From positions 256,001 through 320,000 of the forward strand of contig OZ253462.1 of assembly GCA_965261395.1 (NCBI GenBank): a DNA stretch of 64,000 nt. The letters run 5' to 3'. How positions within the stretch are numbered: position 1 is the stretch's first letter; each line of letters opens with the position of its first letter. The position numbers and the translations under genes are program-made. This document shows, in pieces, positions 18,593-59,551 of the stretch. The DNA is from Candidatus Latescibacterota bacterium (GTDB lineage: Bacteria > Latescibacterota > UBA2968 > UBA8231). Under the pieces are notes generated by a model. It was not told where the DNA came from and did no database searches. It saw nothing but the letters and a program-made list of their open reading frames with translations.

Positions 18593-18661
18593 GCTCTATT
18601 CTCCATCAAAGGATATCTCCGTTTCAAATCCGGCAATTCGCACCTGTCGTGGGGGCATGGC

Positions 18662-19243: not shown

Positions 19244-19400
19244 ACTCGCTTTCCGAAGTCCACTATTCGACTCTCAGGCTAAATTAATGACACGGCATGT
19301 CGGTGCAAGGATGATGACGAAGCGAATGGCGTGGCGCGCATCGCAATCGGCAAGCCGCCCGCGTCTTGCTCTCTCTACCACGCCCCGTATTTTACCCTAC

Positions 19401-44206: not shown

Positions 44207-45295
44207 ATGGCCCAACAACGCTTTCAGCGCACCGCGCCCAGCGACCTGCTCCGCGTCGGAGTGATCATCGGCCCCGGCGGCCACACCTTCAATATCTGGG
44301 GCGAAAAGATGAATCCCCCGCCCGGCGCCCTTCGCACGACGGGCATGATGATGACCTGCGCTTGGTGCCTCGATGCGGGGATGAGCCAGCGTTTTACGGA
44401 AAAGTACCCAGAGGTCCGCATGGTCGCCGACCCTCGGGACATGATCGGCCAAATCGACGGGGTCTATATCGACGACATCAACGCGATTTCGCTCTACCCC
44501 CTGTTGGCGCGGCCTTTTCTGGAAGCGGGCATTCCGACTTTTGTCAATCGGCCCTTTGCCACCTCTATGGCCAAGGGAAGGGAGATGGTGGAAACGGCCA
44601 CGCAACACGGCACGGCGCTGTTGACCGCCTCGACGTGGGAATTTTCCGAGAGCGCCGGCGACTTGCGCGCCAAGGCCGCGGACCTGCCCGACATCAAGGG
44701 CTATGTGGCGCACAACTCCATGAGCGACTACTACACTCACGGCCTGCACGGCGTCTGGTACATCCACTCGATTTTGCGCGACGAGATCGCCAAGGGACGG
44801 GGTCGGCTGCGCGCCGCTGCGTACCACACCCCCAATTGGCGGGTCCCCGGCGGGATGATCGCATACGAACACGAGAGTCCGACGCGCCCGTACTACGGGG
44901 CACTGCACATGAGCTCGGGTGCCGACGGCAACGCCTACATGCGGATCTTCGGCGACCACCGAGGCGATGCCGAGGGGCGGATTCCGGGGCGGCCCGGCTA
45001 CTTCATGTACAACGCTTGGAACGCGCTCCAACTCGGCATTCAGGAAATGTTTGAGACCGGCCAGTCGCCGGAGACGGGCGAGCAGCTTTTGGAGAAGCTG
45101 ATGATGTTTCTCCTGCCGTTCTATTCGGCATTGGAGCGCGGCGGCGCGCTAGTGCAGCGAGAGGAATTGGGCGACTGGGAGTTGCCGCCCCCGTCCGCCG
45201 TGCTCATGGAAGACGGCCTGCCGACCGACAGCGCCTTTGCATCTCCCTACACCCAAGCCCAGCTTGAAGAAGCAGCGCAGATGCTGGGTGGGTAA
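44207..45295 (+). CDS. Gfo/Idh/MocA-like oxidoreductase (divergent)
   Basis: LRVGVI, MIGQIDGVYI, PFLEAGIPTFVNRPFA, YYTHGLHGV; RBS GGAGG. Confidence 0.65.
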   Translation: MAQQRFQRTAPSDLLRVGVIIGPGGHTFNIWGEKMNPPPGALRTTGMMMTCAWCLDAGMSQRFTEKYPEVRMVADPRDMIGQIDGVYIDDINAISLYPLLARPFLEAGIPTFVNRPFATSMAKGREMVETATQHGTALLTASTWEFSESAGDLRAKAADLPDIKGYVAHNSMSDYYTHGLHGVWYIHSILRDEIAKGRGRLRAAAYHTPNWRVPGGMIAYEHESPTRPYYGALHMSSGADGNAYMRIFGDHRGDAEGRIPGRPGYFMYNAWNALQLGIQEMFETGQSPETGEQLLEKLMMFLLPFYSALERGGALVQREELGDWELPPPSAVLMEDGLPTDSAFASPYTQAQLEEAAQMLGG

Positions 45296-45315
45296 TTCCA
45301 GCGAAGAATGCATCC

Positions 45316-46863
45316 ATGAACAAGCGCAGACTACCCATCGGCATTCAGACCTTCCGCGAGGTCCGCGAAGATACCTGCTACTACGTCGATAAAACCGCCT
45401 ACATCCGCCGGCTGCTCGACGAGGGTAAGCACTACTTCCTGTCGCGCCCACGGCGCTTTGGCAAGAGCCTATTCTTGGACACGCTCAAGGAAGTGTTCGA
45501 AGGCAACGAACCGCTGTTCGCGGGGCTGGACATTCACGACCGCTGGGATTGGTCGGTGCGTCATCCGGTGCTGCGGCTCGACTTCAGCAGTGGCACCTAC
45601 CAGGGGCCGGACGACTTGCGGAAGGAAGTGGCGGCGCAATTAAACACCTTGGAGGCCGAAGCGGAGATCGTCCCGCGCGACGACGAAGCGCCCGTCCGCT
45701 TCCGCCACTTGATGAAGGTGCTGCACGAGCGCAGCGGTCAGCGCGTTGCGGTGCTGGTCGATGAGTACGACAAGCCGATTCTCGATGCACTGGAAGTACC
45801 GGAGGTCGCCCGCGCCAACCGCGACTTTCTGCGCGGCCTGTATTCGACCGTGAAGTTTGCCGACGCGCACATCCGCTTCACGTTCATCACCGGGGTGAGC
45901 AAGTTTTCCAAGGTCAGCCTGTTTTCCGGCCTCAACAACCTCACCGATATCACCCTCGAACCCGAATACTCGGCCCTCTGCGGCTATACCGACGCCGATC
46001 TAGACGCCGTGTTCGCCCCGGAGTTGCCCGGCTTAGACCGGGACCAGATCCGCGACTGGTACAACGGTTATAGCTGGCTCGGCGACGAGAAGGTGTACAA
46101 CCCTTTTGACATCCTCCTGCTGTTTCGCCGCCGCCGATTCGCCGCCTATTGGTTTGAAACCGGCACTCCGACGTTTCTGATCGAAACGCTGTTCAAGCGC
46201 CGCGTCAGTTCCCTAGCACTCGATGAGATGGTCGGCAGCGACGAACTACTATCGACTTTTGATGTCGATGACATCGCAACCGAGGCACTGCTGTTCCAGA
46301 CCGGCTACCTGACGATAACCGACGAGGAAGACGTTGGCGGCGAGCCCGTCTATCGCTTGGGCTATCCCAACCGGGAGGTACGGCAGAGCCTGAACCGCAG
46401 CCTGCTGCGCTACTTGGTGCGCGATTCAACGCGGCAGATGGCCAACAGCGTGCAACTCTACCGGCTGCTGGAGGCTAACGACTTCGCCGGGCTGGAGACC
46501 CTGTTCCACGCCTTTTTCGCCAGCATTCCCTACGAGTGGTATTCCAACAACGACATCGCTAATTACGAGGGCTACTACGCCAGCGTGTTCTACTCCTATT
46601 TCGCGGGGCTGGGGCTGGACATCACAGTGGAGGACAGCAGCAGCCACGGACGCTTAGACATGGCGGTTCTATTCAATGGCAACATCTATCTATTTGAGTT
46701 CAAGGTGGTCGAGATGGCGTCTGCGGGTGCGGCGATGGCGCAGTTGCAGGAGCGGCGCTACGCGGACAAGTACCGCGCCTTGGGCCAGCCGATTTACCTG
46801 ATTGGCGTGGAGTTCAGCAAGGATGAGCACAACCTAGCGGCGTTTGAGGTGGAACGCGCCTGA
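45316..46863 (+). CDS. AAA-ATPase-like domain plus C-terminal PD-(D/E)XK nuclease protein
   Basis: LPIGIQTF, YYVDKT, SRPRRFGKSL (Walker A), LVDEYDKP (Walker B), YNPFD, GRLDM...IYLFEFK. Confidence 0.9.
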   Translation: MNKRRLPIGIQTFREVREDTCYYVDKTAYIRRLLDEGKHYFLSRPRRFGKSLFLDTLKEVFEGNEPLFAGLDIHDRWDWSVRHPVLRLDFSSGTYQGPDDLRKEVAAQLNTLEAEAEIVPRDDEAPVRFRHLMKVLHERSGQRVAVLVDEYDKPILDALEVPEVARANRDFLRGLYSTVKFADAHIRFTFITGVSKFSKVSLFSGLNNLTDITLEPEYSALCGYTDADLDAVFAPELPGLDRDQIRDWYNGYSWLGDEKVYNPFDILLLFRRRRFAAYWFETGTPTFLIETLFKRRVSSLALDEMVGSDELLSTFDVDDIATEALLFQTGYLTITDEEDVGGEPVYRLGYPNREVRQSLNRSLLRYLVRDSTRQMANSVQLYRLLEANDFAGLETLFHAFFASIPYEWYSNNDIANYEGYYASVFYSYFAGLGLDITVEDSSSHGRLDMAVLFNGNIYLFEFKVVEMASAGAAMAQLQERRYADKYRALGQPIYLIGVEFSKDEHNLAAFEVERA

Positions 46864-46870
46864 TATAGAT

Positions 46871-47818
46871 ATGCTGAACGAACTGCGCAAAATCCGCTAC
46901 GCCCGCTTCCGCCTAGAGATGACCGCAGCTAGCCAATTGCGGTTGCCTCCCTACAAGGGATCCACCTTTAGAGGGGCCTTTGGCCATACCTTCAAACAGC
47001 TAGTCTGTGTCAAGCGGGATCTGGACTGTTCCACCTGTCTGATCAGCGACCGGTGCGTGTATTACTATGTCTTCGAGACCCCGTCCAATAGTGAGGGAGA
47101 GAAGGACAGTCGCGGATATACCTTTGCGCCGCATCCTTTTGTGATTGAACCGCCCGAGGAAACGCGGGAAATCTACGAGCCGGGAGCCGAATTGCGGGTC
47201 GGACTGGTTTTGGTGGGGCGTGCCTTGGACTACCTGCCCTACTTCATCTACGCCTTTGAGGAAATGGGGCAGCGAGGGTTAGGGGCCGGGCGCGGCAAAG
47301 CTGCTTTGCAGCGAGTTATTGCCCTCGGTCCTGAGCCTAGCGACGATAGGTGCATCTATCAGACCGGTACTGGGCAACTGGAGCAGGACTATCCGGTCGG
47401 CGTTGGTGCGCCTGACACCGAGGCCGTTGGAACGCGGCTCCGGCTGCGGCTGCACACGCCGCTGCGGCTCAAGAACGAGGGGCGCTATACTCGCCAGCTT
47501 GACTTTTCTCTATTGGTGCGATCCTTGTTGCGGCGCGCTTCGGATCTGGCCCGCTTTCACTGCGGGGCTGAGCTGGACCTAGACTATCGGCAGTGGATTG
47601 AGCGGGCAGCCGGGGTATCGGCGGCGACGACACTGCGCTGGCACGACTGGGAGCGGTATTCGCAACGGCAGGATCGGAGAATGAAGTTAGGTGGCTTGGT
47701 CGGCGAAGTGGAATTCGCTGGTGAGTGGCAACCCTTCATGCCACTGTTGCGGCTGGGCGCGGATCTACACGTGGGCAAGGGGACGGGGTTTGGACTAGGA
47801 CGCTACGAGATTTTGTAA
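46871..47818 (+). CDS. cas6: CRISPR pre-crRNA processing endoribonuclease Cas6
   Basis: GSTFRGAFG, Cys cluster, PHPFVIEP, TPLRL, C-terminal Gly loop HVGKGTGFGLGRY. Confidence 0.92.
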   Translation: MLNELRKIRYARFRLEMTAASQLRLPPYKGSTFRGAFGHTFKQLVCVKRDLDCSTCLISDRCVYYYVFETPSNSEGEKDSRGYTFAPHPFVIEPPEETREIYEPGAELRVGLVLVGRALDYLPYFIYAFEEMGQRGLGAGRGKAALQRVIALGPEPSDDRCIYQTGTGQLEQDYPVGVGAPDTEAVGTRLRLRLHTPLRLKNEGRYTRQLDFSLLVRSLLRRASDLARFHCGAELDLDYRQWIERAAGVSAATTLRWHDWERYSQRQDRRMKLGGLVGEVEFAGEWQPFMPLLRLGADLHVGKGTGFGLGRYEIL

Positions 47819-47835
47819 AGGAGCAGGATGAAGAC

Positions 47836-49524
47836 ATGAAACACAAACTAATCGCTGTGATCGGCAACACACCGCAAGTTATGACAGAGACTTTCTGGGC
47901 ATTGCGTTTCCAACTCCATGTGCCCATTGATGAAGTATTTGTGATGACGACAACTATGGGTAAAGCAACCTGCCAGCAACGCCTTTTGGACGAAGGCCGA
48001 TTTGCAAAGATGTTGTCGGACTACGATATCGACCCCGATACGGCCAAGTTCGACGCCGATCATATCCGTGTATTTAAAGATGCCGAGGGCAATTTTTTAG
48101 ACGATATCCGCACCTCTGATGATAATCGCCTAGCCAGGAATCAACTTTTCCGCTGGATTGAGGATTGGACCCAGAAGGATCATGTCGCTTTACACTGCTC
48201 GCTTGCAGGCGGACGTAAGTCAATGGGATACTTGCTCGGTGCTGCTATTCAATTTTTTGGCCGCCCACAAGATCGCCTGTATCATGCGCTGGTTACACCG
48301 CCAGAGATTGAAATGAATCGCGATTTTTTCTTTCCACCTGTTCGTGAAACGCAAATCCCCACGTCAGACGGGCAACACATTTCTACTGCTGATGTGCGTA
48401 TTGAGTTGGCAGAGTTACCCTATGTATCGGTAAGAGATATATCCGTATTTGGCGATGAAAGCTACGACCGAATTCTACAGAGAACACAAGAAGAGGTGAG
48501 GCGTATTCCACGTCTAAGAGCAGAAAACAAGCGATTGAGAGAAACATCGAGTAATGCCGGTGGATTGATCGGAAACAGTGCTGCTATGCGGAAAACCAAA
48601 GAACAGATTCGGCAAGCTGCTGATGCAGATGATGCAACCGTATTGCTCTTGGGTGAAACGGGAACGGGAAAAGAACGCGCAGGTGAAGAACTGCATGAGC
48701 AGAGCACGAGAAAAGATCGACCATTCATACCGATTAACTGTAGTGCATTCCCGGATACACTTTTAGAGGCAGAGCTATTCGGTGCGACACGAGGTACTTA
48801 TACCGGACAAGCCGGGCCGCGTAAGGGTGCGTTTCGCATGGCCGAAGGCGGTATCCTTTTTCTCGATGAAATAGGAGAATTATCACGTGATGGGCAGGCG
48901 AGGCTGTTGCGCGTATTACAAGAAAAGAAAATGCGCGCGGTTGGCAGCGATGAACCGGAGAAAGACATTGATGTACGCATTGTTGCGGCGACCAATCGCG
49001 ACTTAGAATCCATGGTTCGAGAAGGGGCTTTCCGAGAGGACCTGTTGTATCGCCTCAATGCTTTGACCATTTACATGCCACCGTTGCGAGAACTACGCGA
49101 AGATATACCGGAGCTAATCGACCTGTTTTGTGAACAGTTTAATGAAAAATACAAACGCAATGTTGTGGGCTTTGATGCCTCAGCTATAGACGCTATGTGC
49201 CGCTATACCTGGCCGGGTAACGTGCGCGAGCTTGAAAATGAAGTTCAGCGTATCGTCATTGCCGCGCCTCCGGGTGCATTTCGAGTACACAAGGAAAACT
49301 TAGCCAAGCATATTATTGAATCGACAGATTTAGACACGGGTAGTGGTACGCTCAAAGAACAAGTGGCACAGTTTGAGAAGCAAAAAATTGAGGAAGCGTT
49401 GGCGCAAACTCAGGGCGAAAGAGGATCTGCCGCAGAGATACTGGGTATCGACCCTACAACGCTGGGTAGAAAAGCTGAAAAGTATGGCTTATCTCTAAAA
49501 AAGAGTCATAAGGATCGTGAGTGA
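47836..49524 (+). CDS. CARF (NE0113/Csx14-like) domain fused to sigma54 enhancer-binding AAA+ and Fis-type HTH
   Basis: N-term LIAVIGNTPQVMTETFWAL, MTTT, LDDIRT, LHCSLAGGRKSM, RPQDRLYHALV, FFFP; C-term GETGTGKE, EAELFG, GTYTGQ, LFLDEIGEL, AATNRDL, FREDLLYRL, WPGNVREL, AAEILGIDPTTLGRK. Confidence 0.88.
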   Translation: MKHKLIAVIGNTPQVMTETFWALRFQLHVPIDEVFVMTTTMGKATCQQRLLDEGRFAKMLSDYDIDPDTAKFDADHIRVFKDAEGNFLDDIRTSDDNRLARNQLFRWIEDWTQKDHVALHCSLAGGRKSMGYLLGAAIQFFGRPQDRLYHALVTPPEIEMNRDFFFPPVRETQIPTSDGQHISTADVRIELAELPYVSVRDISVFGDESYDRILQRTQEEVRRIPRLRAENKRLRETSSNAGGLIGNSAAMRKTKEQIRQAADADDATVLLLGETGTGKERAGEELHEQSTRKDRPFIPINCSAFPDTLLEAELFGATRGTYTGQAGPRKGAFRMAEGGILFLDEIGELSRDGQARLLRVLQEKKMRAVGSDEPEKDIDVRIVAATNRDLESMVREGAFREDLLYRLNALTIYMPPLRELREDIPELIDLFCEQFNEKYKRNVVGFDASAIDAMCRYTWPGNVRELENEVQRIVIAAPPGAFRVHKENLAKHIIESTDLDTGSGTLKEQVAQFEKQKIEEALAQTQGERGSAAEILGIDPTTLGRKAEKYGLSLKKSHKDRE

Positions 49525-49528
49525 ATGG

Positions 49529-49561
49529 CTGCAACCTTGCAGGGATTTCTGCAGAATTGCA
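49529..49561. promoter_or_regulatory. Tandem TGCA-N4-TGCA palindromes, candidate upstream activator sequences
   Basis: CTGCAACCTTGCAG (49529-49542) and TGCAGAATTGCA (49550-49561), centres 20 bp apart, about 130-150 bp upstream of the predicted sigma54 start site. Confidence 0.6.
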
Positions 49562-49660
49562 TGACTGAACATGTTGTCGTCCATTTCCTGTTTCAGGAAA
49601 ACATCGCACAACCTATTGTTTTTCTTGATCTTTGAGAAAATTCGAAGGTTTTTTTGTGTT

Positions 49661-49676
49661 TGGCACGGGGATTGCG
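49661..49676 (+). promoter_or_regulatory. Sigma54 (RpoN) -24/-12 promoter
   Basis: TGGCACG-GGGA-TTGCG matches the consensus TGGCACG-N4-TTGC; GG (49662-63) and GC (49674-75) are separated by exactly 10 nt; predicted +1 near 49687. Confidence 0.82.
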
Positions 49677-49740
49677 ACTGTATAAGCAAAAGGTGAACAG
49701 TTTCAGTAAATCCGCAGCAAACATTAAATGGAGGAACAAC

Positions 49741-50091
49741 ATGAACACTCTAATCAATCAGGGGGATGAGCAATATTATTCTCAGGCCGGTTTCTGGAAT
49801 AAGTTGCGCAACTTCGCACGTACCGCGGGTCGGGAAGTCGTCGAGCATGCCCTGTCGCTCTACTACACCGCACAGGATCCTAACACACCGGCCTGGGCCA
49901 AGACGGTTATCTACGGAGTGTTGGGGTACTTCATCCTGCCGGTCGATCTAATTCCCGACCTGATCCCAGTCGTCGGCTTCAGCGACGATTTGGCTGCGTT
50001 TGTCGCCGCACTCGCTACCGTGGGGATCCATGTGACGCCTGAGATTAAAAACCGCGCCAAGAAGAAAGCAGCCGAGTGGTTTGGTAAGTGA
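49741..50091 (+). CDS. YkvA / DUF1232 family small membrane protein
   Basis: FWNKL, TPAWAK, LGYFILPVDLIPDLIPVVGFSDD; RBS GGAGG. Confidence 0.9.
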   Translation: MNTLINQGDEQYYSQAGFWNKLRNFARTAGREVVEHALSLYYTAQDPNTPAWAKTVIYGVLGYFILPVDLIPDLIPVVGFSDDLAAFVAALATVGIHVTPEIKNRAKKKAAEWFGK

Positions 50092-50206
50092 GCAATGCAA
50101 GCAGAAGAGTTTTTAAGCATATTTATGAGTTTGGGTTGGCTCTGTACGTGGGCTAAGAGACGGGTTTGGGCTGGGATGCTACGGGATTTTATACAGGAGA
50201 AGGTTG

Positions 50207-52540
50207 ATGGTATCAAGAGACGCCCTAGTTGTCGGGGCCTTGCTGCACGATATAGGCAAATTTGAATTCAGGACATCGGACCGACGTACGCGCCACACCA
50301 CCTACGGGGATTTTTTTGTAGGCAAGTATCTGAGTCGTTTCCGCTGCTTGGAACCGATTCGGGAGGAGGTTCGCCGGTTGGTCGCCCATCACCACGATAG
50401 TGAGTTGGGTGATCCCTTTCTGCGGGAGGCCGACCATCTAGCGGCGGCGGATCGGCAGGTGGACGGCAGTCCCGAGACCCTGCGGTCGCTGGTGAGTATC
50501 CTGACCGCCGTGAACATTGGGAAGGGATCCTCACCACAGGATGTGCATCGGTATGCGCCGGGGCCGGTGGATTTTGCCAACCCCTTTCCCGAACACGTAT
50601 CAGGGGTCACGCCCGTCGAGTGGAAGCCCGACCGGGACCAAGCGCGAGACGAGCACGCCCGCGCTTGGGAGCAATTTTGCGCCGAGATCGGCACAATGCC
50701 CGATGGCGAGTTGGCGAGTTGGATTGAGACGTTCTTGGCGGTGGCTCGCAAGCATCTGAGTCGCGTGGCCTCGGCTGCCTACAAATCGCATCCAGATATT
50801 TCGCTCTACGATCACGCCCGCTCGGTGGCCGCCATTGCGGTGTGCCTACACGAGGCACATCAGCAAGCGGAGCCTTTCCTATTGATTCAGGGGGATATAT
50901 CGGGCGTTCAGTCCTTTCTCTATAAACTGGCTAGCCCAGCCGAAGAGGGAGGGACGAAAAATACCGCCAAGCGTTTACGGGGACGGTCGCTATTTCTAGT
51001 GCTACTAGCCGAGACCGTAGCACGTTATTACTTGCGTAAATTGAATTTGCCTCCGACCAACCTGCTGTACTGTGGCGGGGGGCACTTTTCGATCCTTGCG
51101 CCCCATACTGACGAGCTGAAAACCAAGCTGGCCGAGGCCGAAGAGCAGGTCAACCGCTGGTTGATCGACCAGCACCGGGGCGATCTGGCACTAGTGAGCG
51201 CAGCCACCTCGGCCGATAAGGAGTTGCTGGCCAATTTCCCTCGTTTGATGCAGCAATCGGGCTACGAGCTGGGCCGGGCCAAGCGGCAGAAATTCCGCTC
51301 CGTACTGGATGAGCGACTGTTCGCGTTGCCGGACTATGACCAGACCATGGACGTCTGCCCGGTATGCCAAGCTGATTTCGTCAAAGGCTCCGGGAAGACC
51401 TGTATGACCTGTAAACAACATGTGGAGACCGGGAGCCAAATCGTCCGGGCAGAGTTCTTGGTGCGGTTTGAAGGGGAAAATTTGGACGGGGAATTCGCCC
51501 AATTAGGTTTTGCTTGGGAATTGGCTGCCGACTGGAAAGAGGTTGTCCAGCTAGTAGGGGAAACCCCAGCCGAGCGCGTACATGTGGAACGGCTCAACCG
51601 CAGTGATTTCCTGACTCAGGCCGGCGCGGCCTTGGGTACGCGACATAGCCTCAGCTTCGGGTTCCGGCCACTCGGCCAGTACGCCCCCATTGACGAGCAA
51701 GAGAAGGGGCCGCTGGACTTTGAACACTTGGCCCAAATCAATAGTGAAAAATACCCGCTATTGGGAGTGGTACGCCTCGATGTCGATGCGCTGGGCGCAG
51801 TATTCGCTTCGGGGTTGGGGGAACAGCGATCTCTATCGCGCACAGCCACTTTGAGCCGCGAATTGGAGACCTTCTTCTCTGGCTATGTCAACACCTTGGC
51901 CAAAGATCATTATATGTACATCACCTACGCCGGAGGCGACGACCTGTTCGCCGTAGGCTCTTGGATCAACGCCCTTGAATTCAGTCGCGCCTTGCGGCGG
52001 GACTTTGGTCAGTTCAGCGGTGGCAATCCCAATCTGACCTTTTCCGGCGGTCTGTTTTTTTGCAAGCCGGATTTCCCCATCGGACGGGCTGCCGAAGCCG
52101 CTGGCAAACTGGAGAAGCGGGCCAAGGATTTCCCAGACAAGAATGCCGCCTGCCTGTTTGACGAAGAGGTCTCTTGGGAACGGCTCGACAAGTTGCTCGC
52201 CTTTGGCGACGAACTACTGTACTTGGTGACCGAAGCGGACCCAAACAACCGCTTGCCCCGCTCGTTTGTGCATCGTCTGTTGAGCTTGGGAGCCGAGCGC
52301 CGGTTGGCCCAAGAAGAAGGAAAATTAAAAGCCGAAATAAAAACTCAAATACAGCTCAAATATCTCGTAGCCCGACGCGGGGCCACCAGCAAGGCGATCA
52401 GCGACAATCAGGAGATGGAGGCAGACCGACGCAGAATAGGTGCCTTGGGACGACTGGTCAACGAGCCGGAATTGATGCGCCAGATCGCCGTACCTGCATC
52501 ATACGTACTGTACAAGACGCGAAACCTCAACACAGAGTAG
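50207..52540 (+). CDS. cas10: Type III-A Cas10/Csm1 with HD nuclease and intact GGDD cyclase motif
   Basis: GALLHDIGKF (HD), PDISLYDHAR, GDISGVQSFLY, LRGRS, CPVC..CMTC, RLDVDALG, YAGGDDLF. Confidence 0.96.
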   Translation: MVSRDALVVGALLHDIGKFEFRTSDRRTRHTTYGDFFVGKYLSRFRCLEPIREEVRRLVAHHHDSELGDPFLREADHLAAADRQVDGSPETLRSLVSILTAVNIGKGSSPQDVHRYAPGPVDFANPFPEHVSGVTPVEWKPDRDQARDEHARAWEQFCAEIGTMPDGELASWIETFLAVARKHLSRVASAAYKSHPDISLYDHARSVAAIAVCLHEAHQQAEPFLLIQGDISGVQSFLYKLASPAEEGGTKNTAKRLRGRSLFLVLLAETVARYYLRKLNLPPTNLLYCGGGHFSILAPHTDELKTKLAEAEEQVNRWLIDQHRGDLALVSAATSADKELLANFPRLMQQSGYELGRAKRQKFRSVLDERLFALPDYDQTMDVCPVCQADFVKGSGKTCMTCKQHVETGSQIVRAEFLVRFEGENLDGEFAQLGFAWELAADWKEVVQLVGETPAERVHVERLNRSDFLTQAGAALGTRHSLSFGFRPLGQYAPIDEQEKGPLDFEHLAQINSEKYPLLGVVRLDVDALGAVFASGLGEQRSLSRTATLSRELETFFSGYVNTLAKDHYMYITYAGGDDLFAVGSWINALEFSRALRRDFGQFSGGNPNLTFSGGLFFCKPDFPIGRAAEAAGKLEKRAKDFPDKNAACLFDEEVSWERLDKLLAFGDELLYLVTEADPNNRLPRSFVHRLLSLGAERRLAQEEGKLKAEIKTQIQLKYLVARRGATSKAISDNQEMEADRRRIGALGRLVNEPELMRQIAVPASYVLYKTRNLNTE

Positions 52541-52549
52541 GAGACCATC

Positions 52550-53008
52550 ATGGCTAACGAACACAGAGGAAGTGGGGGTGGAGGAGCCGACCGTCGGAGG
52601 GACCAGACCACCAGGGCTAACAAACAGCCCATTAATTTGGGCACCATTACTCCCCAGGAACTGAACCGCCGGGGTGAAGAGTTGGGCAAGGAACTGGCAA
52701 GGAACATTAAGGCCAACCAGATCCGCAATATCTACGGTGCGGTCCAGCACATTCGCGTCCGCGCGAGTCGGCCCCAACCCGATACCGAAGATATCAATCG
52801 CCGCCTGATCTTCCTCAAGCCAAAACTGGCCTATGCCAGTGGTCGGCAAAATAATTTGAGGGGCTTACGGGATGTATTGGTGGAGGCGATTGATAGCGTA
52901 GTACGAAGCGAAGACCCCCAAAAAGCGCAAAAAGCGCGGGATAACTTTTTCATCCTGATGGAATCTATCGTGGCCTACCACAAATTCTACGGCGGCAAAG
53001 ATTCGTAA
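52550..53008 (+). CDS. csm2: Type III-A small subunit Csm2
   Basis: NQIRNIY, LKPKLAYASGR, MESIVAYHKFYGG. Confidence 0.93.
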   Translation: MANEHRGSGGGGADRRRDQTTRANKQPINLGTITPQELNRRGEELGKELARNIKANQIRNIYGAVQHIRVRASRPQPDTEDINRRLIFLKPKLAYASGRQNNLRGLRDVLVEAIDSVVRSEDPQKAQKARDNFFILMESIVAYHKFYGGKDS

Positions 53009-53030
53009 ACCATAGGAGAACAGTACCATT

Positions 53031-53852
53031 ATGGCTCAATTTATTGGCAATATCATTATGCGCGGCAAAATCGAGTGCCTCACCGGTCTGCACATTGGGG
53101 CGGGCAAGGACACTGCCGAGATCGGCGGAGTCGATAGCCCGGTAGTGCGCGACCCCCATAGCCGCCGGCCCTATATCCCTGGCTCTTCCCTCAAAGGCAA
53201 GATGCGTTCCATGCTGGAGTTCGCTACGGGCAAAGTGAAGGATGGCAAGGTGCATACTTGTAACGAGGCCCGCTGCGAGGTGTGTCGGCCTTTTGGGTCG
53301 TCGGCCGCAGATGCGCGCAAATGCGGTCCCACGCGGCTGTTGGTAAGGGACGCCTATCCCGACGAGCAGACCCAAAGCATGTGGGAGAATCTGAGTACCG
53401 ACTTACTCTACGCGGAGATGAAATCGGAAAACTTTTTGGATCGCATCACTTCGGCGGCCAATCCCCGTTTCATCGAGCGGGTGGTCAAGGGATCGTGCTT
53501 CAATTTGGAAATGATCTATGGAGTCTATCAGGTGGACGGCGTCAACGACCTCGACTTTTTCGCCCATGTAGTGACCGCGCTGCGCCTGCTTGAAGACGGC
53601 ACCTTGGGCGGCAACGGCAGCCGAGGCTACGGCCAGATACGCCTGAAGCTGGCCGACCCTGTTTTCTTAAGTGGGCAAGACTACTGCGAAGGTAGCGATG
53701 CCTGGAAACAAGCCCGTCAGTGGCCAGCCGACGAAGCCATTGTGCGGGGCATGGGTGACTTCTCGTTGAACCGAGAGGATGCTACCTGCCAATCATGGGA
53801 TGAGATAATGAAGTCGCCAGAGGACGAGGTGGGCAAAGAGGGGCATGGATGA
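53031..53852 (+). CDS. csm3: Type III-A RAMP Csm3
   Basis: LTGLHIG, IGGVDSPVVRDP (catalytic Asp retained), PYIPGSSLKGKMRS, ANPRFIERV, LGGNGSRGYG. Confidence 0.95.
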   Translation: MAQFIGNIIMRGKIECLTGLHIGAGKDTAEIGGVDSPVVRDPHSRRPYIPGSSLKGKMRSMLEFATGKVKDGKVHTCNEARCEVCRPFGSSAADARKCGPTRLLVRDAYPDEQTQSMWENLSTDLLYAEMKSENFLDRITSAANPRFIERVVKGSCFNLEMIYGVYQVDGVNDLDFFAHVVTALRLLEDGTLGGNGSRGYGQIRLKLADPVFLSGQDYCEGSDAWKQARQWPADEAIVRGMGDFSLNREDATCQSWDEIMKSPEDEVGKEGHG

Positions 53853-54814
53853 AAGCGATCTATCTGCAATCCCGAGGGGCCTATCGCAACGAGCTGCATT
53901 CGGACACCCTATTCGGACTGATTTGCTGGGCGATCCGTCAGGTCTTTTCGGAGGCGAGGTTGGTGGAGTTGCTAAAAGCCTTTTATGCTGGCCAGCCCCC
54001 CTTCCTGCTTAGCTCAGCTTTCCCCTGCGCCAAAGACGGCACCGCCGTCTGGAAGCCCTTTTTGCCTCGTCCGTTGCTTCCACCTCCGGCGCCTGTGGAA
54101 GATCTGAGCCCCGAAGAAGCTCAGCGGCTCAAACGGTACAAGCGGCTCCGCTATATTCCCGCCGATCACTTCAATCAATTTTTGCAGGGCGACTATTCGG
54201 AGGGTTCGTATTATGAGTCCGATGTCTGGGAAAAAACTACGGTGCCGATTCCCCGGCGTACTGACCGCTTGCATGGCACCATTGATCGATTGAGCGGCAC
54301 TACCGATGGAGAGGGCACACTGTTCTCCGAGCCCGAATACCGGACGGACGGACTCTACTTCTTGCTCGACGGGGAAGAAGCCGAACTAGTGGAAAACGCG
54401 CTCCGTTTTCTGGAGGATTTCGGCTGGGGTGGAGGCAATAGCGTGGGCTATGGCCACTTTGCTGCGACCGTAGGTGAAAGCCCGCTCGCCGTCGCCGTCT
54501 CTGCGCCGGATCGCTTTATCACCCTGTCCCTGTACCATCCTCGATCCGACGAACTCGCGCATTTCAAAACTGGGGAAGCGTGGTACGAGTTGGTGGTTCG
54601 CAAGGGCAAGGTGGGCGGCCACTTCCTCCAAACGGGCGACTTTTGGAAGCGCTCGGTATTGATGTTTGCTCCCGGCTCGACCTTCCCAGCGATGGCGGAA
54701 AAGCAAGTGTACGGACGCAATCCCATTGTAAAGGGGCGGAAGGACGGGCTACCCTTCGACGTGCAGCAATTCGGCTATGCCCTTGCCGTGGGCATGAAAA
54801 CGGCCAGAGAGTAG
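53849..54814 (+). CDS. csm4: Type III-A RAMP Csm4
   Basis: HSDTLFG, LSSAFP, GWGGGNSVGYG, ITLSLYHP, MFAPGSTF. Confidence 0.92.
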   Translation: MKAIYLQSRGAYRNELHSDTLFGLICWAIRQVFSEARLVELLKAFYAGQPPFLLSSAFPCAKDGTAVWKPFLPRPLLPPPAPVEDLSPEEAQRLKRYKRLRYIPADHFNQFLQGDYSEGSYYESDVWEKTTVPIPRRTDRLHGTIDRLSGTTDGEGTLFSEPEYRTDGLYFLLDGEEAELVENALRFLEDFGWGGGNSVGYGHFAATVGESPLAVAVSAPDRFITLSLYHPRSDELAHFKTGEAWYELVVRKGKVGGHFLQTGDFWKRSVLMFAPGSTFPAMAEKQVYGRNPIVKGRKDGLPFDVQQFGYALAVGMKTARE

Positions 54815-54819
54815 AAATT

Positions 54820-56562
54820 ATGGAACGAAGAGTGCAGTGTCTGTCGCCGGTACACATTGGCACGGGTAAGGAACTAGAACCTTTCGACTATATCGTGGAT
54901 GGCCAACGCTATATTCGCGTCCACTTGGATGCAGTCCTCGAACGGATGACGACCGAACAAGTGGACGATCTGGCTGCCTGGGTGAGCGAGCGGGCTGACC
55001 AGATGGTAGAACTGGGAAGGAAGCAAAGCGATGATATCCGGCGGGAGATGCAGCTATCGAACTTCCCCGGCGCTGATGTCGCGTTACGGGAGGCTCTTCG
55101 AACGGACTCAGCCCTAGCTCGCTACCACGGCAATAAGGGATTTGATCGCAATTTGCAGGTGCGAGAGCAGGTCAAAGATGCCGATGAGACGCCTCTCATT
55201 CCGGGCAGTTCGCTCAAGGGTGCTCTGCGTACGGCCCTCGCTTTTGCCGCTTTGGAGGAAATGGAACTGGCCGAGCGGGAGGCGTTGAGACAGTCGCTTG
55301 AACGACGACTGAACGAGAGAGGCCCTCGTCTGCAAGAACGTATCGGCCAAGAGATAGAACAGGCCGTCTTCCGCTGTGGGAAGGAGCAGAGGGGGCGCAC
55401 TAGCTATGGAGACATCCACTACGACTTGATGAGGGCAGTCTCCGTCTCGGACACGTACGATGCCCAAGCGGAATTGATCGTGCCGCAGATATACACCTTT
55501 GTCGAGTCGCGCACCCGGGAGGGAAATACCAGACTCGCCGCCCAAGCGCCGCTTATCGTCGAAGCGCACGCACCGGGCAATATCTTCAGTCTGCGTCTGC
55601 GGATTGACGGTGGTCTCCTGCGGGCGATTAGTCAGAATGGTCGCAGAGGCGAGTGGATCAACTTTGAGCAACGGGTGCAGCGGGCCTTTGGCTCTGAGGT
55701 GGCGCGGCTGTTGCCGGGAGCATCGGACGAGCAAGTGGAGCAGGCCGTGGTAGGCCGGCTCGAAGCCGCGGCGCGGAGCTTTGCCAAGGCAATCGTGTCG
55801 GCTGAACAGGGCTGGGAGGAAGCACACGGGCACAGTTCCCGCGATCTAAAGGACTTTTACAATCGGCTAGACGACCTGATAGGAAAGGGATTGGTGCCGC
55901 TGCGGTTGGGCTGGGGCAGTCACTTTATGGCCACTACTTTGTTGCTGGCGCTCAAAGAGGATGCGGGCTGGCGTCCTATACTGGAAAGGTGCTTCCGGGC
56001 GTTTGATATAGGCGTTCCTCCAGGACGACATAGAGATAGGGGCAGAGATTCGGAGCGCCAAATTGAGCTCGACGACTTCCCCCGCTCCCGTCGGCTGGTT
56101 GCGGCCGGAAGGAGGCCTGTAGCCCCCTTGGGCTGGATCGCATTAGTGCCTACAGTGGAAGAGTTGCCCGGACCGCTGGTGGAAAAGGAGCGGCTGCTCG
56201 CCCGAACTCAGGAGAGCGAACCTAGGCGAGGGGAAAGGCCACAGGCGGACAGATATAGAGATGGGCGCGGCGGGCGCAGCGAGCCGGGACCGGCTCCACG
56301 CCCCGAACGACCTCTCCCGCAGATCAAGCTTCCGAAGCCTGCCTCGAAACCGCCGCCCCGCCAAGGGTCTCGGCCGGGCGACCGAGTCAATGTGGAAATC
56401 GTGGCCAACGACAACGCTCAGGTTACGGTAAAAGTGCTGGACGGTCAGGGCGAGGAGGTGCGGTTCCGGCAGCCTTACTATCCGGGCCGACCTGGAGAAA
56501 AGAGAAAGATGAAGGTCAGAGCAGTGGACTCCCAAGGCAAGATCACGCAGGTGGCCCCTTGA
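54820..56562 (+). CDS. csm5: Type III-A RAMP Csm5 with C-terminal extension
   Basis: LSPVHIGTG, IPGSSLKGALRTA, VSVSD, LRLGWGS, PLGWI, followed by a Pro/Arg-rich linker and a beta-rich tail. Confidence 0.9.
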   Translation: MERRVQCLSPVHIGTGKELEPFDYIVDGQRYIRVHLDAVLERMTTEQVDDLAAWVSERADQMVELGRKQSDDIRREMQLSNFPGADVALREALRTDSALARYHGNKGFDRNLQVREQVKDADETPLIPGSSLKGALRTALAFAALEEMELAEREALRQSLERRLNERGPRLQERIGQEIEQAVFRCGKEQRGRTSYGDIHYDLMRAVSVSDTYDAQAELIVPQIYTFVESRTREGNTRLAAQAPLIVEAHAPGNIFSLRLRIDGGLLRAISQNGRRGEWINFEQRVQRAFGSEVARLLPGASDEQVEQAVVGRLEAAARSFAKAIVSAEQGWEEAHGHSSRDLKDFYNRLDDLIGKGLVPLRLGWGSHFMATTLLLALKEDAGWRPILERCFRAFDIGVPPGRHRDRGRDSERQIELDDFPRSRRLVAAGRRPVAPLGWIALVPTVEELPGPLVEKERLLARTQESEPRRGERPQADRYRDGRGGRSEPGPAPRPERPLPQIKLPKPASKPPPRQGSRPGDRVNVEIVANDNAQVTVKVLDGQGEEVRFRQPYYPGRPGEKRKMKVRAVDSQGKITQVAP

Positions 56563-56579
56563 ACGGACAAAGGAAGACA

Positions 56580-56732
56580 ATGGATTATCAGCATATCATC
56601 ACCATTGAACCTGGCAAGCGCAGTGGTACGCCGTGTATTCGCGGCATGAGGATTACCGTCTATGATGTGCTTGACTATCTCGCCTCGGATATGTCCGTCG
56701 AAGAGATGAGGACGTCGGTACCACAACGCTAA
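56580..56732 (+). pseudogene. Truncated DUF433 family (antitoxin-like) protein, 50 aa, absent from the ORF track
   Basis: Translates as MDYQHIITIEPGKRSGTPCIRGMRITVYDVLDYLASDMSVEEMRTSVPQR*; the DUF433 core is present but the usual C-terminal helix is missing. Confidence 0.75.
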
Positions 56733-56813
56733 TCGAGTATCGGTATCCAACAGCAGACCTGATCGGTAGAGGGTTAAATCGAATATACACCGATCAATGA
56801 TAGGAGACTTATC

Positions 56814-57950
56814 ATGCGTTTCGTTCTGTCAACCGTTGGCACAAGCATCCTGACAAATCTCATTGATAACAGCAATCCTGACGAATCTATCTGGCGGAAT
56901 AGATTGCGGGATTCGGCGAATCTCAAACAGGGCGAACTAGAACCGGAAACTGAGACGGCGATCAATACACTTTCTGACCGGGCACTCGAAAAACTGATGC
57001 AAGATGATGCCGAAATCAACCGCCGAATTAGTGCCGAGTTGAACGGCATTTACGGTATCTACGGAAGTCAATTGCCTAAAAACAGCCCCGATGAGCACTA
57101 TCTCATCTGCACCGACACCGCACAGGGGCAGAAGACGGGCGAACTGATTGAGGATTTCCTTGGAGGGATGGGATTTAGGGTAGGAATCGTCACGCCTCCT
57201 CGGCTTTCGACACAAGATCCAGAATCCTTCACCACAGGCACGAAGGAACTCATTAAGTGGCTGGAGGACAACGTGCCGTGGCGACGTGATAGTGGCTATC
57301 GCGTGATTTTCAATCTGGTTGGCGGCTTCAAAAGTCTGCAAGGTTACATGAATACTTTCGGTGCATTTTACGCTGATGAGGTGATATACATCTTTGAGGC
57401 ACCAACCGCTGACTTAATCAAGATTCCGCGCCTGCCAATTCAGATTGACACCACCGTGGTTGAAAACCATCGGATGCAATTTGCATTGATGGATGCTGGA
57501 AAACTGTATCCGATTGAGGAACTCGAAGGTATCCCAGAAACGCTGCTTGAATTCGTAGAAGATAATGGCGTGAATTATGGGGGATTATCGGCGTGGGGAC
57601 AGTTGATCTGGAACCGAACGAAATCGGATCTATTGATAGATGCGTTATTGCCATTTCCACGATTGACATACGAGCAAGACTTCATCAACGACTGCGAGAC
57701 TTTGCACAACAAGCAACGCATTGATCTTCAAGAGACTTTAGCGAAGATCGCCGCCGTGCTCGAAGATAGCAGCGGCAACATAACACTGCTTAATAAGAGA
57801 ATTTCTGGACTGAACTTTGAAAAACTTCAAAATCTTGATATCTATACATTCCGTATTACTCTTGCCTACCGCGTCAGTTGCAAGGTTTCTAGAGATACAT
57901 TAATCCTTCGGCGCTATGGCGTTCATGACTACGTGTACCAAAATCCATAG
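56814..57950 (+). CDS. cami1: CARF (APE2256/Crn1-like)-wHTH-RelE effector, Cami1-like
   Basis: LSTVGTSILTN, SAELNG, TDTAQG, FNLVGGFKS, YIFE...LIKIPRLPI; C-terminal RelE-like FEKL...YTFRITLAYRV...LRRYGVHD. Confidence 0.8.
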   Translation: MRFVLSTVGTSILTNLIDNSNPDESIWRNRLRDSANLKQGELEPETETAINTLSDRALEKLMQDDAEINRRISAELNGIYGIYGSQLPKNSPDEHYLICTDTAQGQKTGELIEDFLGGMGFRVGIVTPPRLSTQDPESFTTGTKELIKWLEDNVPWRRDSGYRVIFNLVGGFKSLQGYMNTFGAFYADEVIYIFEAPTADLIKIPRLPIQIDTTVVENHRMQFALMDAGKLYPIEELEGIPETLLEFVEDNGVNYGGLSAWGQLIWNRTKSDLLIDALLPFPRLTYEQDFINDCETLHNKQRIDLQETLAKIAAVLEDSSGNITLLNKRISGLNFEKLQNLDIYTFRITLAYRVSCKVSRDTLILRRYGVHDYVYQNP

Positions 57951-58026
57951 GAAACATGGGTTGAACTCCAGGAGGACGCCCAGCTACGCGCCTATCGGGC
58001 ACTCGAATTTTCCAAGGGGTATCGCC

Positions 58027-59058
58027 ATGCCCACCCTGTACGTCACAGAACCCAGATCGGTCGTCCGGCGTTCGGTCGGCTCCGTCGTGGTAACGCTCAA
58101 CGAGGACCCCGACGGGCCGGGGCCACTGCCCGAACGCCAGCGGCGCTTGCTCGAAGTCGAGCCACATCGGCTGGAACTGATCGCCCTGGTAGGCCGCGTT
58201 CATATCACCGCAGACGCGCTCCAACTTTGCTTGGAGCAGGGCATTGCGGTCGCTTGGTTGCAGGCGAATGGGAATTTTATGGGCCGTCTCGTGCCGGAGT
58301 TGTCGCGCACGGCCGATCTGCGTTTGGCGCAGTTCCGCATGGCCGACGACGAGCCGCAGGCGCTGGCACTGGCTCAGACCTTTGTCGCAGCCAAGCTCCA
58401 CAATGCGGTTGGCCTGCTGACGGCTTTGCGCTCCAATCGCCGCAGCCAGCCTGCTTTGGGACGGGCCATCGGGGAACTCAGGGCCATGGCCGATACCGTG
58501 GCGCAGGCGACTAGCCGGGAGGTGCTACTGGGCTATGAGGGCGATGCGGCCCGGCGCTACTTTGCGGGGCTGCGGCTCGGTTTCACGGGTGCCATCGGCT
58601 TTGACGGCCGTGCTCGTCGGCCACCGCCGGACCCGGCCAATGCCTTGCTGTCGTTCGGCTATGTGTTGCTGGCTAATGTACTGGCGAGTCTGCTGGAGGC
58701 CTGCGGCTTCGATCCCTACTTGGGCTTTATGCACACAGTCCGTTCTGGGCGGCCCAGTTTGGCACTCGACCTTTTGGAGGAATTGCGGCATCCGGTCGTG
58801 GATCGCTTTGTGCTGCGGGTGTGCAATCGGGGACAATTGCGTCCCGAGCATTTTGAGACTGATGCCGAACGGGGCGGTGTGCGCCTCACCCGTGCAGGTA
58901 TGCGAATTTTCTTTCGCACTTGGGAAGCCTTTATGGACGCTCCACTGCCGGGGATTGGCACAGAGATGTCACCAGAAGAATTGCTTCGCCGTCAGGTTGA
59001 TCGTCTAGCGGCCCACGTGCGAGATCAAGCGCCATACCAACCCTTGCTTCTACGCTGA
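58027..59058 (+). CDS. cas1: CRISPR integrase Cas1
   Basis: TLYVTE, LLGYEGDAARRYF, RRPPPDPANALLSFGY, DPYLGFMH, LALDLLEELR. Confidence 0.96.
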   Translation: MPTLYVTEPRSVVRRSVGSVVVTLNEDPDGPGPLPERQRRLLEVEPHRLELIALVGRVHITADALQLCLEQGIAVAWLQANGNFMGRLVPELSRTADLRLAQFRMADDEPQALALAQTFVAAKLHNAVGLLTALRSNRRSQPALGRAIGELRAMADTVAQATSREVLLGYEGDAARRYFAGLRLGFTGAIGFDGRARRPPPDPANALLSFGYVLLANVLASLLEACGFDPYLGFMHTVRSGRPSLALDLLEELRHPVVDRFVLRVCNRGQLRPEHFETDAERGGVRLTRAGMRIFFRTWEAFMDAPLPGIGTEMSPEELLRRQVDRLAAHVRDQAPYQPLLLR

Positions 59059-59070
59059 GGAGGCTTGCCT

Positions 59071-59358
59071 ATGTCCCGCTTTGTTGTGTGCTACGATATA
59101 GCCGACAATAAACGCCGCTATAAGGTGGCCGCCTGCCTAGATGGGTATGGCGACCGCGTACAGGGCAGCGTATTCGAGTTGCGGGTCGAGCGCACCCTTC
59201 TCGACCGATGCTTAGACGAGGTATCCGGCCTGATCGATGCGGCTGAGGACAGCGTGGTCGTCTATCGCCTTTGCGCGGCCTGCGAGAAAGAGCGGGTTTA
59301 TTGGGGCGTAGGCGAACAGGTTGCCCATATTGGCGAGGAAGATGTATTTATCGCATGA
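59071..59358 (+). CDS. cas2: CRISPR-associated Cas2
   Basis: VVCYDIADNKRR, YGDRVQGSVFE, DSVVVYRLCAAC. Confidence 0.95.
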   Translation: MSRFVVCYDIADNKRRYKVAACLDGYGDRVQGSVFELRVERTLLDRCLDEVSGLIDAAEDSVVVYRLCAACEKERVYWGVGEQVAHIGEEDVFIA

Positions 59359-59551
59359 ACAGTCGTAACCTCGGATGGCCCGTCAATTTCCTTGGAGTTA
59401 CGAATTTGGCTAACCGATTGAAATTACTGCAATTCGGCATTACCTGCCGGATCGGAGACAGCCGTGATAGGTGTCGTTGGCCGCTCTGGCCATTGGGTTA
59501 CGAAAAGTGTTCCCGCAACCTATTGCAAGACAAGGAAAACTATGGCATACT
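59359..59551 (+). promoter_or_regulatory. CRISPR leader
   Basis: Non-coding region between cas2 and the first repeat, containing repeated GTTACGA motifs and IHF-like sites. Confidence 0.75.

Follow-up and report, generated by a model that had tools for sequence, protein, structure and literature searches.

The stretch of DNA analysed here, in the following referred to as the window, comprises 64,000 nucleotides of a Candidatus Latescibacterota genome (assembly GCA_965261395.1, contig OZ253462.1, positions 256,001 to 320,000), and contains a complete type III-A CRISPR locus with every gene on the + strand. The subject of this report is a gene of this locus, situated between cas6 and cas10, which encodes a CARF domain fused to a bacterial enhancer-binding protein (bEBP) with an AAA+ ATPase module and a Fis-type helix-turn-helix (HTH) domain. 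The same placement is found in relatives. The open reading frame (ORF) runs without internal stops over 562 amino acids, and its ATG at 47836 is supported by homologues which start from the same methionine. A longer, GTG-started ORF from 47725 was rejected; it would overlap cas6, and homologues use the methionine at 47836. The gap from the cas6 stop to the start of the CARF-bEBP gene measures 17 bp, and both genes are probably co-transcribed. Coordinates of all features are collected in Table 1.

A CARF domain of the NE0113 type followed by a complete bEBP (AAA+ and Fis HTH) had been proposed for this protein in a sequence-only reading, and Pfam and the NCBIfam model TIGR02584 bear this out. 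The motifs quoted there are present in the translation (GNTPQVMTET at amino acids 10–19, DDIRT at 89–93, SLAGGRKSM at 122–130, and QDRLYHALV at 145–153), as is the linker string ILQRTQEEVRRIPRLRAENKRLRE (amino acids 213–236). Pfam assigns Cas_NE0113 (PF09623) to amino acids 12–201 (E 6.7e-36, score 124.5 against a cut-off of 23), Sigma54_activat (PF00158) to 244–412 (E 1.8e-61), AAA_lid_14 to 418–497 (E 5.3e-20), and HTH_8 to 510–550 (E 1.9e-11); TIGR02584 covers amino acids 5–201 with 176.6 bits (cut-off 80.65). The CARF and HTH domains are separated by an AAA+ module of about 250 amino acids, and no single PADLOC profile spans the whole fused protein. In an AlphaFold2 (AF2) model the linker forms helices at amino acids 210–222 and 225–234, with a low predicted local distance difference test (pLDDT) of 37–69. 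Among solved structures, FleQ, ZraR, and NtrC are the best matches to the C-terminal two thirds (E 2.4e-73 to 1e-68). Walker A (G273–K279), Walker B (D344 and E345), sensor I (T386 and N387), and the arginines R400/R406 and R464 do not vary among the 15 family members compared; the motif names are our own assignments, after AAA+ proteins in general. The genome itself encodes rpoN, i.e. sigma-54 (E 3.5e-60). A descent of the AAA+/HTH half from the RtcR_PspF2 group (332 bits) was considered and dropped, because NCBIfam models of unrelated bEBPs score about equally (PrdR 313.8, NifA 311.8).

Immediately behind the CARF-bEBP gene the DNA carries a putative regulatory region of its own. The pattern TGGCAC-N5-TTGC on the + strand (Table 1) is the sole match without mismatch in the window; it lies 137 bp past the stop codon of the CARF-bEBP gene and 66 nt before the ATG of a gene of the DUF1232 family, and would place a transcription start near 49687. 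Two palindromes of the form TGCA-N4-TGCA, 20 bp apart, are located about 106–126 bp upstream of the -24 element. In the 6.55-Mb genome there are 23 perfect -24/-12 matches, this one alone having TGCA-N4-TGCA within 200 bp upstream, and the tandem pair of palindromes occurs a single time. Only perfect matches are counted here, because allowing up to two mismatches yields no enrichment of the sigma-54 pattern in the window (68 sites observed, 71.7 expected). Alignment of 16 promoter regions displays a mean identity of 70%, with invariant columns in the proximal palindrome, in a spacer block AAC-N3-TTG-N-TTT, and in TTTGGCAC/TTGC. Conservation is concentrated on precisely the elements predicted to be functional. 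TGCA-N4-TGCA is the predicted cognate enhancer of the bEBP, and a DNA-bending protein may bind at the spacer block. A simple scan revealed no terminator-like site in the 115 bp between DUF1232 and cas10; counts of sigma-70 and terminator scans were at or below shuffle level and are used solely for this absence.

Table 1. Features of the CARF-bEBP region in the window, with the evidence for each.
Feature	Position	Strand	Evidence
cas6	46844–47818	+	Pfam CRISPR_Cas6 E 2.5e-21; homologue alignments begin at about amino acid 7
CARF(NE0113/CARF5)-bEBP gene, 562 amino acids	47836–49524	+	Stop-free translation, Pfam, NCBIfam, PADLOC
CARF domain, amino acids 1–205	47836–48450	+	TIGR02584, PADLOC CARF5--CARF, AF2, Foldseek
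Helical linker from CARF to AAA+, amino acids 206–243	48451–48564	+	AF2 model
Sigma-54 interaction AAA+ plus lid, amino acids 244–497	48565–49326	+	Pfam; invariant ATPase residues
Fis-type HTH, amino acids 510–550	49363–49485	+	Pfam HTH_8
Predicted enhancer (upstream activating sequence): palindromes TGCAAccTTGCA (49530–49541) and TGCAGaaTTGCA (49550–49561)	49530–49561	+	Sequence, alignment
A/T-rich conserved spacer with invariant AAC-N3-TTG-N-TTT block	49562–49660	+	Alignment of 16 promoter regions
Sigma-54 promoter (pattern match) TGGCACGGGGATTGC, -24 GG / -12 GC	49661–49675	+	Pattern scan, conservation
DUF1232/YkvA-family gene, 116 amino acids	49741–50091	+	Pfam DUF1232 E 3.5e-13; start checked
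III-A effector genes cas10/csm1, csm2, csm3, csm4, csm5	50207–56562	+	Profile matches
cas10/csm1	50207–52540	+	HD domain; GGDD at amino acid 576
Cami1-like CARF-RelE effector	56814–57950	+	PADLOC CARF7--CARF_RelE E 5.8e-128, full length; Pfam Cas_APE2256
cas1	57916–59058	+	Pfam Cas_Cas1 E 4e-86
cas2	59065–59358	+	CRISPR_Cas2 E 9.1e-20
CRISPR array, 37-nt repeat, reaching the window end	59627–64000	+	Tandem Repeats Finder

A metatranscriptome contig of 710 nt from a relative, about 95% alike, spans 49550–50240; it starts ahead of the promoter, at the second palindrome, and runs through promoter and DUF1232 into the beginning of cas10. Such a contig cannot show start, strand or transcription, and no conclusion is drawn from it. 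Small parts of the locus are contained in four metatranscriptome runs, with 90–99% likeness.

Fused genes of this kind were surveyed in relatives. Both PF09623 and PF00158 are present in 101 of the 120 listed relatives of the CARF part, and the next 18 of those listed are unfused TIGR02584/Csx14 proteins of about 380 amino acids. Within species-representative genomes the fused gene is found in Candidatus Latescibacterota only. A CARF match is present in 19 of 168 genomes of the phylum, 13 of these being the fused form (the window's own genome included); one of the 13 loci ends at a contig edge inside the gene, which leaves 12 with downstream DNA. A further fused-type gene (L039) is 41% identical, aligns only from amino acid 77, and lacks downstream DNA. 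One public family record is labelled Candidatus Poribacteria, and bears the generic name 'sigma 54-interacting transcriptional regulator'. Two scans of metagenomes added no member: the first, with a CARF alignment, returned 596 pattern-matching stretches, none of which encodes a relative, and the 80 loci kept in the second are generic bEBPs with AAA+-only matches, the CARF being covered by none.

In each of the 12 fused loci for which downstream DNA is available, a perfect same-strand sigma-54 promoter follows 137–280 bp after the stop codon, whereas the nine loci in which the NE0113-type CARF is unfused show no perfect match. Five of the fused loci (L006, L009, L010, L011, and L127) possess a second perfect promoter with palindromes of its own directly before DUF1232. 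The promoter of the window points towards DUF1232 and the csm operon, those of relatives towards cas6, DUF1232, and other type III modules, and wherever cas6 lies downstream of the bEBP it is faced by the first promoter. Type III or cas6 genes follow the promoter in 11 of the 12 loci. L005 has the promoter directly before a contiguous cas6-cas10-csm2-5-Cami1 operon. As to the interference genes downstream, the window and L005 are of type III-A, L006 has Cmr2/Cmr3, three loci (L009, L011, and L012) combine a short Cas10 with several RAMPs, and another three (L004, L008, and L010) a cold-shock-domain/RAMP protein (845–875 amino acids) with a Cas10-like protein.

The gene set of L004 (12346–17708), L008 (13088–18468), and L010 (13968–19252) looks like an unusual type III variant. 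Its order is the cold-shock/RAMP protein, a protein of about 360–400 amino acids without Pfam match, and a protein of 531–547 amino acids with a weak Cas10 palm2 match. A conserved leader of 190–300 nt extends from the first promoter to cas6 in L005 (6825–7006), and is similar in L010, L027, L003, and L011; it contains shared blocks, and a small ORF or an RNA element is conceivable. In L034 and L035, which are from other Latescibacterota, an unfused NE0113-type CARF gene, recognised by a tblastn match to the CARF part only, is located between cas6 and cas10, without a sigma-54 promoter. Since the unfused gene occupies the same place, this suggests that a bEBP module replaced the C-terminal part of an unfused NE0113-type CARF protein.

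The L1 loop of the AAA+ domain, which contacts sigma-54, reads GTYTGQ (amino acids 320–325; 48793–48810) where the consensus is GAFTGA, a detail absent from the sequence-only reading. GTYTGQ is found in the window's clade; the sister clade has GAFTGA, GAFTDA or GAFTNA, together with the same promoter and palindromes. Some NtrC relatives without the loop act as repressors or sigma-70 activators. A degenerate loop may thus suggest that the present protein acts without sigma-54, either as ordinary DNA-binding repressor or as sigma-70 activator, and that the downstream -24/-12 match is served by another activator. We consider this very improbable, as all ATPase motifs are intact, as the sister clade shares the regulatory sequences, and as the perfect promoter distinguishes the fused from the unfused loci. 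Furthermore, Thr323 of the loop is invariant, and HrpS, which always carries GAYTGA, is active, i.e. tyrosine in place of phenylalanine is compatible with sigma-54 activation (PMC3105312). Such variants of GAFTGA are also accepted among Clostridiales enhancer-binding proteins (PMC6615313). Given the invariant threonine, the active HrpS loop, and the shared promoter and palindromes of the sister clade, GTYTGQ is probably compatible with sigma-54 activation.

The N-terminal domain was assigned by profiles and by structure prediction. PADLOC CARF5--CARF matches the N-terminus with E 4.1e-71, and CARF5--CARF_TM and CARF5--CARF_ADA match as well; these profile names presumably derive from the Makarova 2020 CARF classification. 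The sequence-only reading had named a grouping of this domain with RtcR-type CARFs as the outcome that would speak against it, and in the profiles this grouping did not occur. The RtcR model NF038308 covers only amino acids 221–525 (model positions 157–486) and no CARF, the PADLOC profiles RtcR, RtcR_PspF1, and RtcR_PspF2 align solely from amino acids 222–247 onward, and Pfam gives no match for the RtcR domain at E ≤ 0.1. An RtcR-type CARF was rejected on these grounds.

An AF2 model of amino acids 1–235, built from 15 sequences, reached a pLDDT of 84.9 and a predicted template modelling score of 0.82. The best Foldseek matches of the CARF model are the Crn1 proteins Sis0455 and Sso2081 and the CARF domain of Cad1 (E about 1e-6, probability 1.00), the latter with template modelling (TM) scores up to 0.52/0.72; the rows listed within the top 50 (E ≤ 0.001) are all CARF proteins except for a UDP-GlcNAc 2-epimerase at rank 35. 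By sequence, a search with the CARF profile displays Sso2081/Sis0455 as the only significant match for the N-terminal motif (E 1.5e-4). In this alignment T12 falls on S11 of Crn1, while R127-K128 corresponds to R105-K106, both pairs being part of the string GGRKSM, which is identical in the two; the predicted pocket residues are T12, D89/D90, R127, and K128. In Sis0455, R105 and K106 are needed for both binding and cleavage of cyclic tetra-adenylate (cA4), and the arginine at position 105 is termed exclusive to the small Crn1 group (PMC9638899). A two-copy model of amino acids 1–205 scored 0.78 against 0.00 for the best of three controls, its runs sharing at least 90% of contacts, with a partner pLDDT of at least 89 and K128 touching K128'. 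Of 30 proteins solved as one-chain pairs, 20 reach the mark for a dimer, as does 1 of 23 solved as single chains, and as CARF dimers have already been solved, this result may reflect likeness to them.

These pocket residues bear on the nature of the signal. For RtcR, whose overall architecture is the same, tRNA fragments ending in a cyclic phosphate are the proposed signal (PMC7790460, PMC10159003), and RtcR-like CARF-bEBPs are predicted to control defence genes, among them restriction and CoCoNuT loci (PMC4012209, PMC11090510). By analogy, the present CARF could sense a signal that is not made by Cas10, i.e. RNA ends with 2',3'-cyclic phosphate, or linear A2>P or A4>P arising from ring nucleases, RelE-type or Csm3 cleavage, so that the switch would report RNA damage instead of the recognition of a target. 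The module in L002, with no type III effector genes within 9 kb downstream, would be in line with such a role. However, the CARF is not of the RtcR type, its pocket residues match those of the cA4-binding Crn1, including the arginine noted above, and type III or cas6 genes stand behind the promoter in nearly all loci. We therefore hold a sensor of RNA damage to be quite unlikely, and favour a cyclic oligoadenylate (cOA) made by Cas10 as ligand.

The same residues raise the question of cleavage. Csx14/NE0113 proteins are predicted ring nucleases (PMC8284326), they have been grouped with Crn1 (PMC12409355), and one set of PDB depositors called Cad1 a 'ring nuclease and adenosine deaminase'. Card1 has the equivalent serine and lysine yet no cA4 cleavage (PMC9638899), and for this reason a ring-nuclease activity of the present CARF is considered plausible but unproven.

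The DUF1232 gene, preceded by GGAGG 7 nt ahead of its ATG, is the first gene behind the sigma-54 promoter. In-frame searches displayed an orthologue 3' of the bEBP in 9 of the 12 loci (the window and eight others), with 69–93% identity. Eight of these nine have a promoter of their own 50–80 nt upstream of DUF1232, and in L012 the gene is the second of a sigma-54-driven cas6 unit. DUF1232 is absent from L002 and L005, and the sequence of L003 ends too early to tell. The mean column identity of the protein is 88%, a hydrophobic stretch is located at amino acids 50–100, and the window's genome holds a single DUF1232 gene. An AF2 model from eight sequences was poor (pLDDT 63.9; the other four models 44–46), the ESM Atlas gives 'DUF1232 / YkvA family' only, NCBIfam and PADLOC yield no match for the protein, and no functional work on DUF1232 was found in the literature. 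We infer that DUF1232 is a membrane-associated product of the switch, acting as effector or protectant. Between DUF1232 and the genes that follow, L008 carries a gene for an EcsC-family protein (12437–13066, before the effector genes), and L011 one for an IS4/IS5-type transposase (13882–14748, before cas10).

Base composition and comparison with L008 suggest that the module has a history of its own. An AT-richness of the gene relative to cas6 and cas10, and acquisition as a separate cassette, had been suggested from inspection of the letters. The former agrees with a GC content of 48.1–48.7%, against 59.2% for cas6, 57.3% for cas10, and 58.2% for the window. The latter is supported by the constancy of the value, since the bEBP gene has 47–49% GC in the 11 loci measured (the window and ten relatives) at a locus GC of 46–58%, and by a break of homology against L008, a locus of the same genus. 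Identity of the window to L008 amounts to 95% for cas6 but only to 47% for the bEBP; at the nucleotide level the homology ends within the CARF (48312) and returns with the second palindrome (49550). The homologous blocks are 46866–48312 against 9010–10477 of L008 (90%, through cas6 and the first ~159 bEBP codons), and 49550–50084 against 11863–12356 (83%, from the second palindrome through DUF1232). As the break lies inside the bEBP gene, recombination within the module is indicated. The rest of the CARF, the linker, AAA+, HTH, and the first palindrome were exchanged between two of the family's clades.

The analysis thus shows the fusion gene with intact ATPase and HTH, a genome that encodes rpoN, a private pair of predicted enhancer and promoter, and co-inheritance of the gene with this pair. 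Based on this dataset, we think it probable, with some reserve, that the gene encodes a second-messenger-gated sigma-54 enhancer-binding protein of the type III CRISPR locus, i.e. a cOA-gated and possibly self-resetting switch which induces DUF1232 and type III genes. Sensing of infection would then probably switch genes on, rather than directly activating a nuclease. Regulatory domains of the NtrC1/DctD type and the RtcR type hold the ATPase inactive until a signal arrives, and the following course may be envisaged by analogy. Upon recognition of target RNA, Cas10 with its intact GGDD motif would make cyclic oligoadenylate, likely cA4, in view of the Cami1-like effector of the locus and of a CARF pocket like that of the cA4-specific Crn1. 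The ligand would bind where the two CARF copies meet on their two-fold axis (K128/K128'), and the AAA+ domains, once freed, would form an active ring on the TGCA-N4-TGCA enhancer. ATP hydrolysis would open the sigma-54 promoter and induce DUF1232 together with the type III genes downstream of it (in relatives, with cas6 and the interference operon), as a feed-forward boost comparable to that of Csa3. Finally, slow cleavage of cOA by the CARF, acting as a ring nuclease, may reset the switch.

The sequence does not tell in which direction control runs, and an inverse logic may be conceived, in which the unliganded protein is a constitutive activator of DUF1232 and the type III genes that cOA switches off, or in which the CARF is mainly a tethered ring nuclease or sponge limiting the signalling. 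A constitutive activator would avoid the need for Cas10 before cOA exists. On the other hand, regulatory domains of NtrC1- and RtcR-type bEBPs repress until the signal, and a dedicated enhancer and sigma-54 promoter would be costly for constitutive expression. The predicted ring-nuclease character of NE0113/Csx14 and its grouping with Crn1 (PMC8284326, PMC12409355) speak for the inverse logic. Against it, cA4 stimulates Csa3, which is the CARF transcription factor known so far (PMC8284326). We regard this inverse logic as unlikely.

A more detailed version of the cOA-gated switch is put forward tentatively, and we would not call it probable as a whole. Here cA4 would act on the CARF5-bEBP with its private enhancer and promoter, the output would be a boost of CRISPR with DUF1232 as induced effector or protectant, the built-in ring nuclease would reset the switch, and the unit of bEBP, enhancer, sigma-54 promoter, DUF1232, and often cas6 would move as a cassette among III-A, III-B, and other type III modules.

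Several points weigh against a cOA-gated activator of this kind. Every locus comes from metagenome-assembled genomes of one phylum, and the count of 12 in 12 is inflated, because the loci are kin by shared ancestry and not independent events. The promoter of L002 is followed not by cas genes but by genes for FGE-sulfatase, ankyrin, and kinase proteins. GTYTGQ differs from GAFTGA at three positions, and no tested example of a change to threonine at position 2 or to glutamine at position 6 of the loop was found in the literature. A conserved serine or threonine with lysine is no proof of a ring nuclease, Card1, which has these residues, being non-cleaving (PMC9638899). Cad1, the other CARF5 relative, binds cA4 and cA6 according to PDB titles, and the ligand assumed here is deduced. 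Binding of a ligand could instead switch the protein off, and a csm operon wholly dependent on this promoter would require basal expression before cOA production. With regard to DUF1232, the family is not CRISPR-specific, as it is present in 80 of 168 genomes of the phylum, and three DUF1232 genes distant from a bEBP neighbour unrelated metabolic, toxin-antitoxin or unknown genes. In favour of the cOA-gated activator, no promoter, palindrome or cas gene was found within about 6 kb at seven DUF1232 loci away from the fused bEBP. Hence, it appears that one DUF1232 lineage was recruited behind the promoter. Between the window and L008, DUF1232 is 93% identical while the bEBP is 47% identical, which disfavours a tight, co-evolving contact between both proteins.

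Some neighbouring genes deserve mention. The CARF-RelE protein downstream of the csm genes is called Cami1-like because the PADLOC profile CARF7--CARF_RelE matches it end to end. Cami1 is activated by cA4, and effectors that use different cOA species seldom occur in one locus (PMC11229360). The gene is AT-rich too (47% GC, against 57–60% for the csm genes), and a 70%-identical copy is located directly 3' of DUF1232 in L012. Directly upstream of cas6, with an overlap of 20 bp, lies a gene of the AAA-ATPase_like (PF09820)/PDDEXK_9 type (45316–46863), which is kept at this place in L002, L007, and L008; its protein has no match in PADLOC or NCBIfam. L002 is otherwise syntenic with the window, without DUF1232 or a csm operon, and encodes at 11945–20387 two FGE-sulfatase-domain proteins, an ankyrin-repeat protein, a Ser/Thr kinase, a DUF4407 protein, and an FHA protein. 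Rfam displayed no family at gathering score in positions 45000–64000 of the window.

Most known type III cOA outputs act directly on nucleic acids, proteins, membranes or nucleotides, and the sequence-only reading had called a transcription activator an unusual output. This goes too far, since transcriptional outputs are known with Csa3 (PMC8284326) and CalpL-CalpT-CalpS (PMC11229360), and holds in so far as no report of a sigma-54 bEBP as output inside type III loci was found. No paper was found on an NE0113/CARF5-bEBP in type III loci or on its promoter; the Makarova 2020 CARF classification and its supplements lay outside that search, so that a prior listing is possible. If the interpretation is correct, a cOA-gated sigma-54 activator would be a third, mechanistically different transcriptional route beside Csa3 and CalpL/CalpS, and it would be an ATP-driven, tight off/on promoter switch with a unique, identifiable target that can be tested with a reporter. 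It would also provide the first functional handle on DUF1232/YkvA proteins, and such a CARF-bEBP could serve as a biosensor from cOA to transcription. The newly defined regulon seems the part most worth testing, the promoter and enhancer target being the new element of this analysis.

Among known systems, RtcR is alike in the order of CARF, NtrC-type AAA+, and Fis HTH, and in being a sigma-54 activator located directly upstream of the operon it controls, in its case the rtcBA RNA-repair operon. It differs in that the CARF of the fused protein belongs to another family, in that the neighbours here are cas6, DUF1232, and csm genes instead of rtcA/rtcB, and in its ligand, i.e. damaged tRNA as compared with a predicted cOA. 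It would appear that an RtcR-style design of CARF and bEBP was built inside CRISPR loci with a different, Crn1/Cad1-like CARF. Regulation of transcription by NE0113 proteins was expected as early as 2014, and the same work draws the comparison of RtcR-like proteins with PspF-PspA (PMC4012209). PspF is likewise a sigma-54 bEBP with an operon that starts with a small membrane-associated protein; in contrast to the fused protein, PspF has no sensor domain and is controlled by binding of PspA. DUF1232 showed no relation to PspA, no test aimed at such a relation having been made.

Csa3 is a CARF-gated transcription regulator inside type I/III CRISPR loci as well; reportedly, it is stimulated by cA4 and raises cas gene and CRISPR expression as a positive feedback (PMC8284326). 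It consists of a simple CARF and a DNA-binding domain without ATPase, whereas the fused protein would be an ATP-driven AAA+ activator that needs sigma-54, an enhancer, and a -24/-12 promoter. CalpL-CalpT-CalpS also leads from type III cOA signalling to transcription via an alternative sigma factor (PMC11229360), but there a SAVED-Lon protease frees a sigma factor of the extracytoplasmic function (ECF) type, while here one polypeptide would couple cOA to sigma-54. Crn1 (Sso2081, Sis0455) provides the closest solved folds and has the GxT/SP motif and the identical GGRKSM string in common with the present CARF; Crn1 proteins are small stand-alone enzymes, and the domain considered here is a predicted sensor fused to an effector. 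Cad1 has a CARF of the same profile group (PADLOC CARF5, including CARF5--CARF_ADA), with an adenosine deaminase as output instead of a transcription activator. As judged from these comparisons, the architecture of the fused protein is that of RtcR with another CARF and other neighbours, its proposed logic that of Csa3 but exerted via sigma-54, and its predicted pocket that of Crn1 and Cad1.

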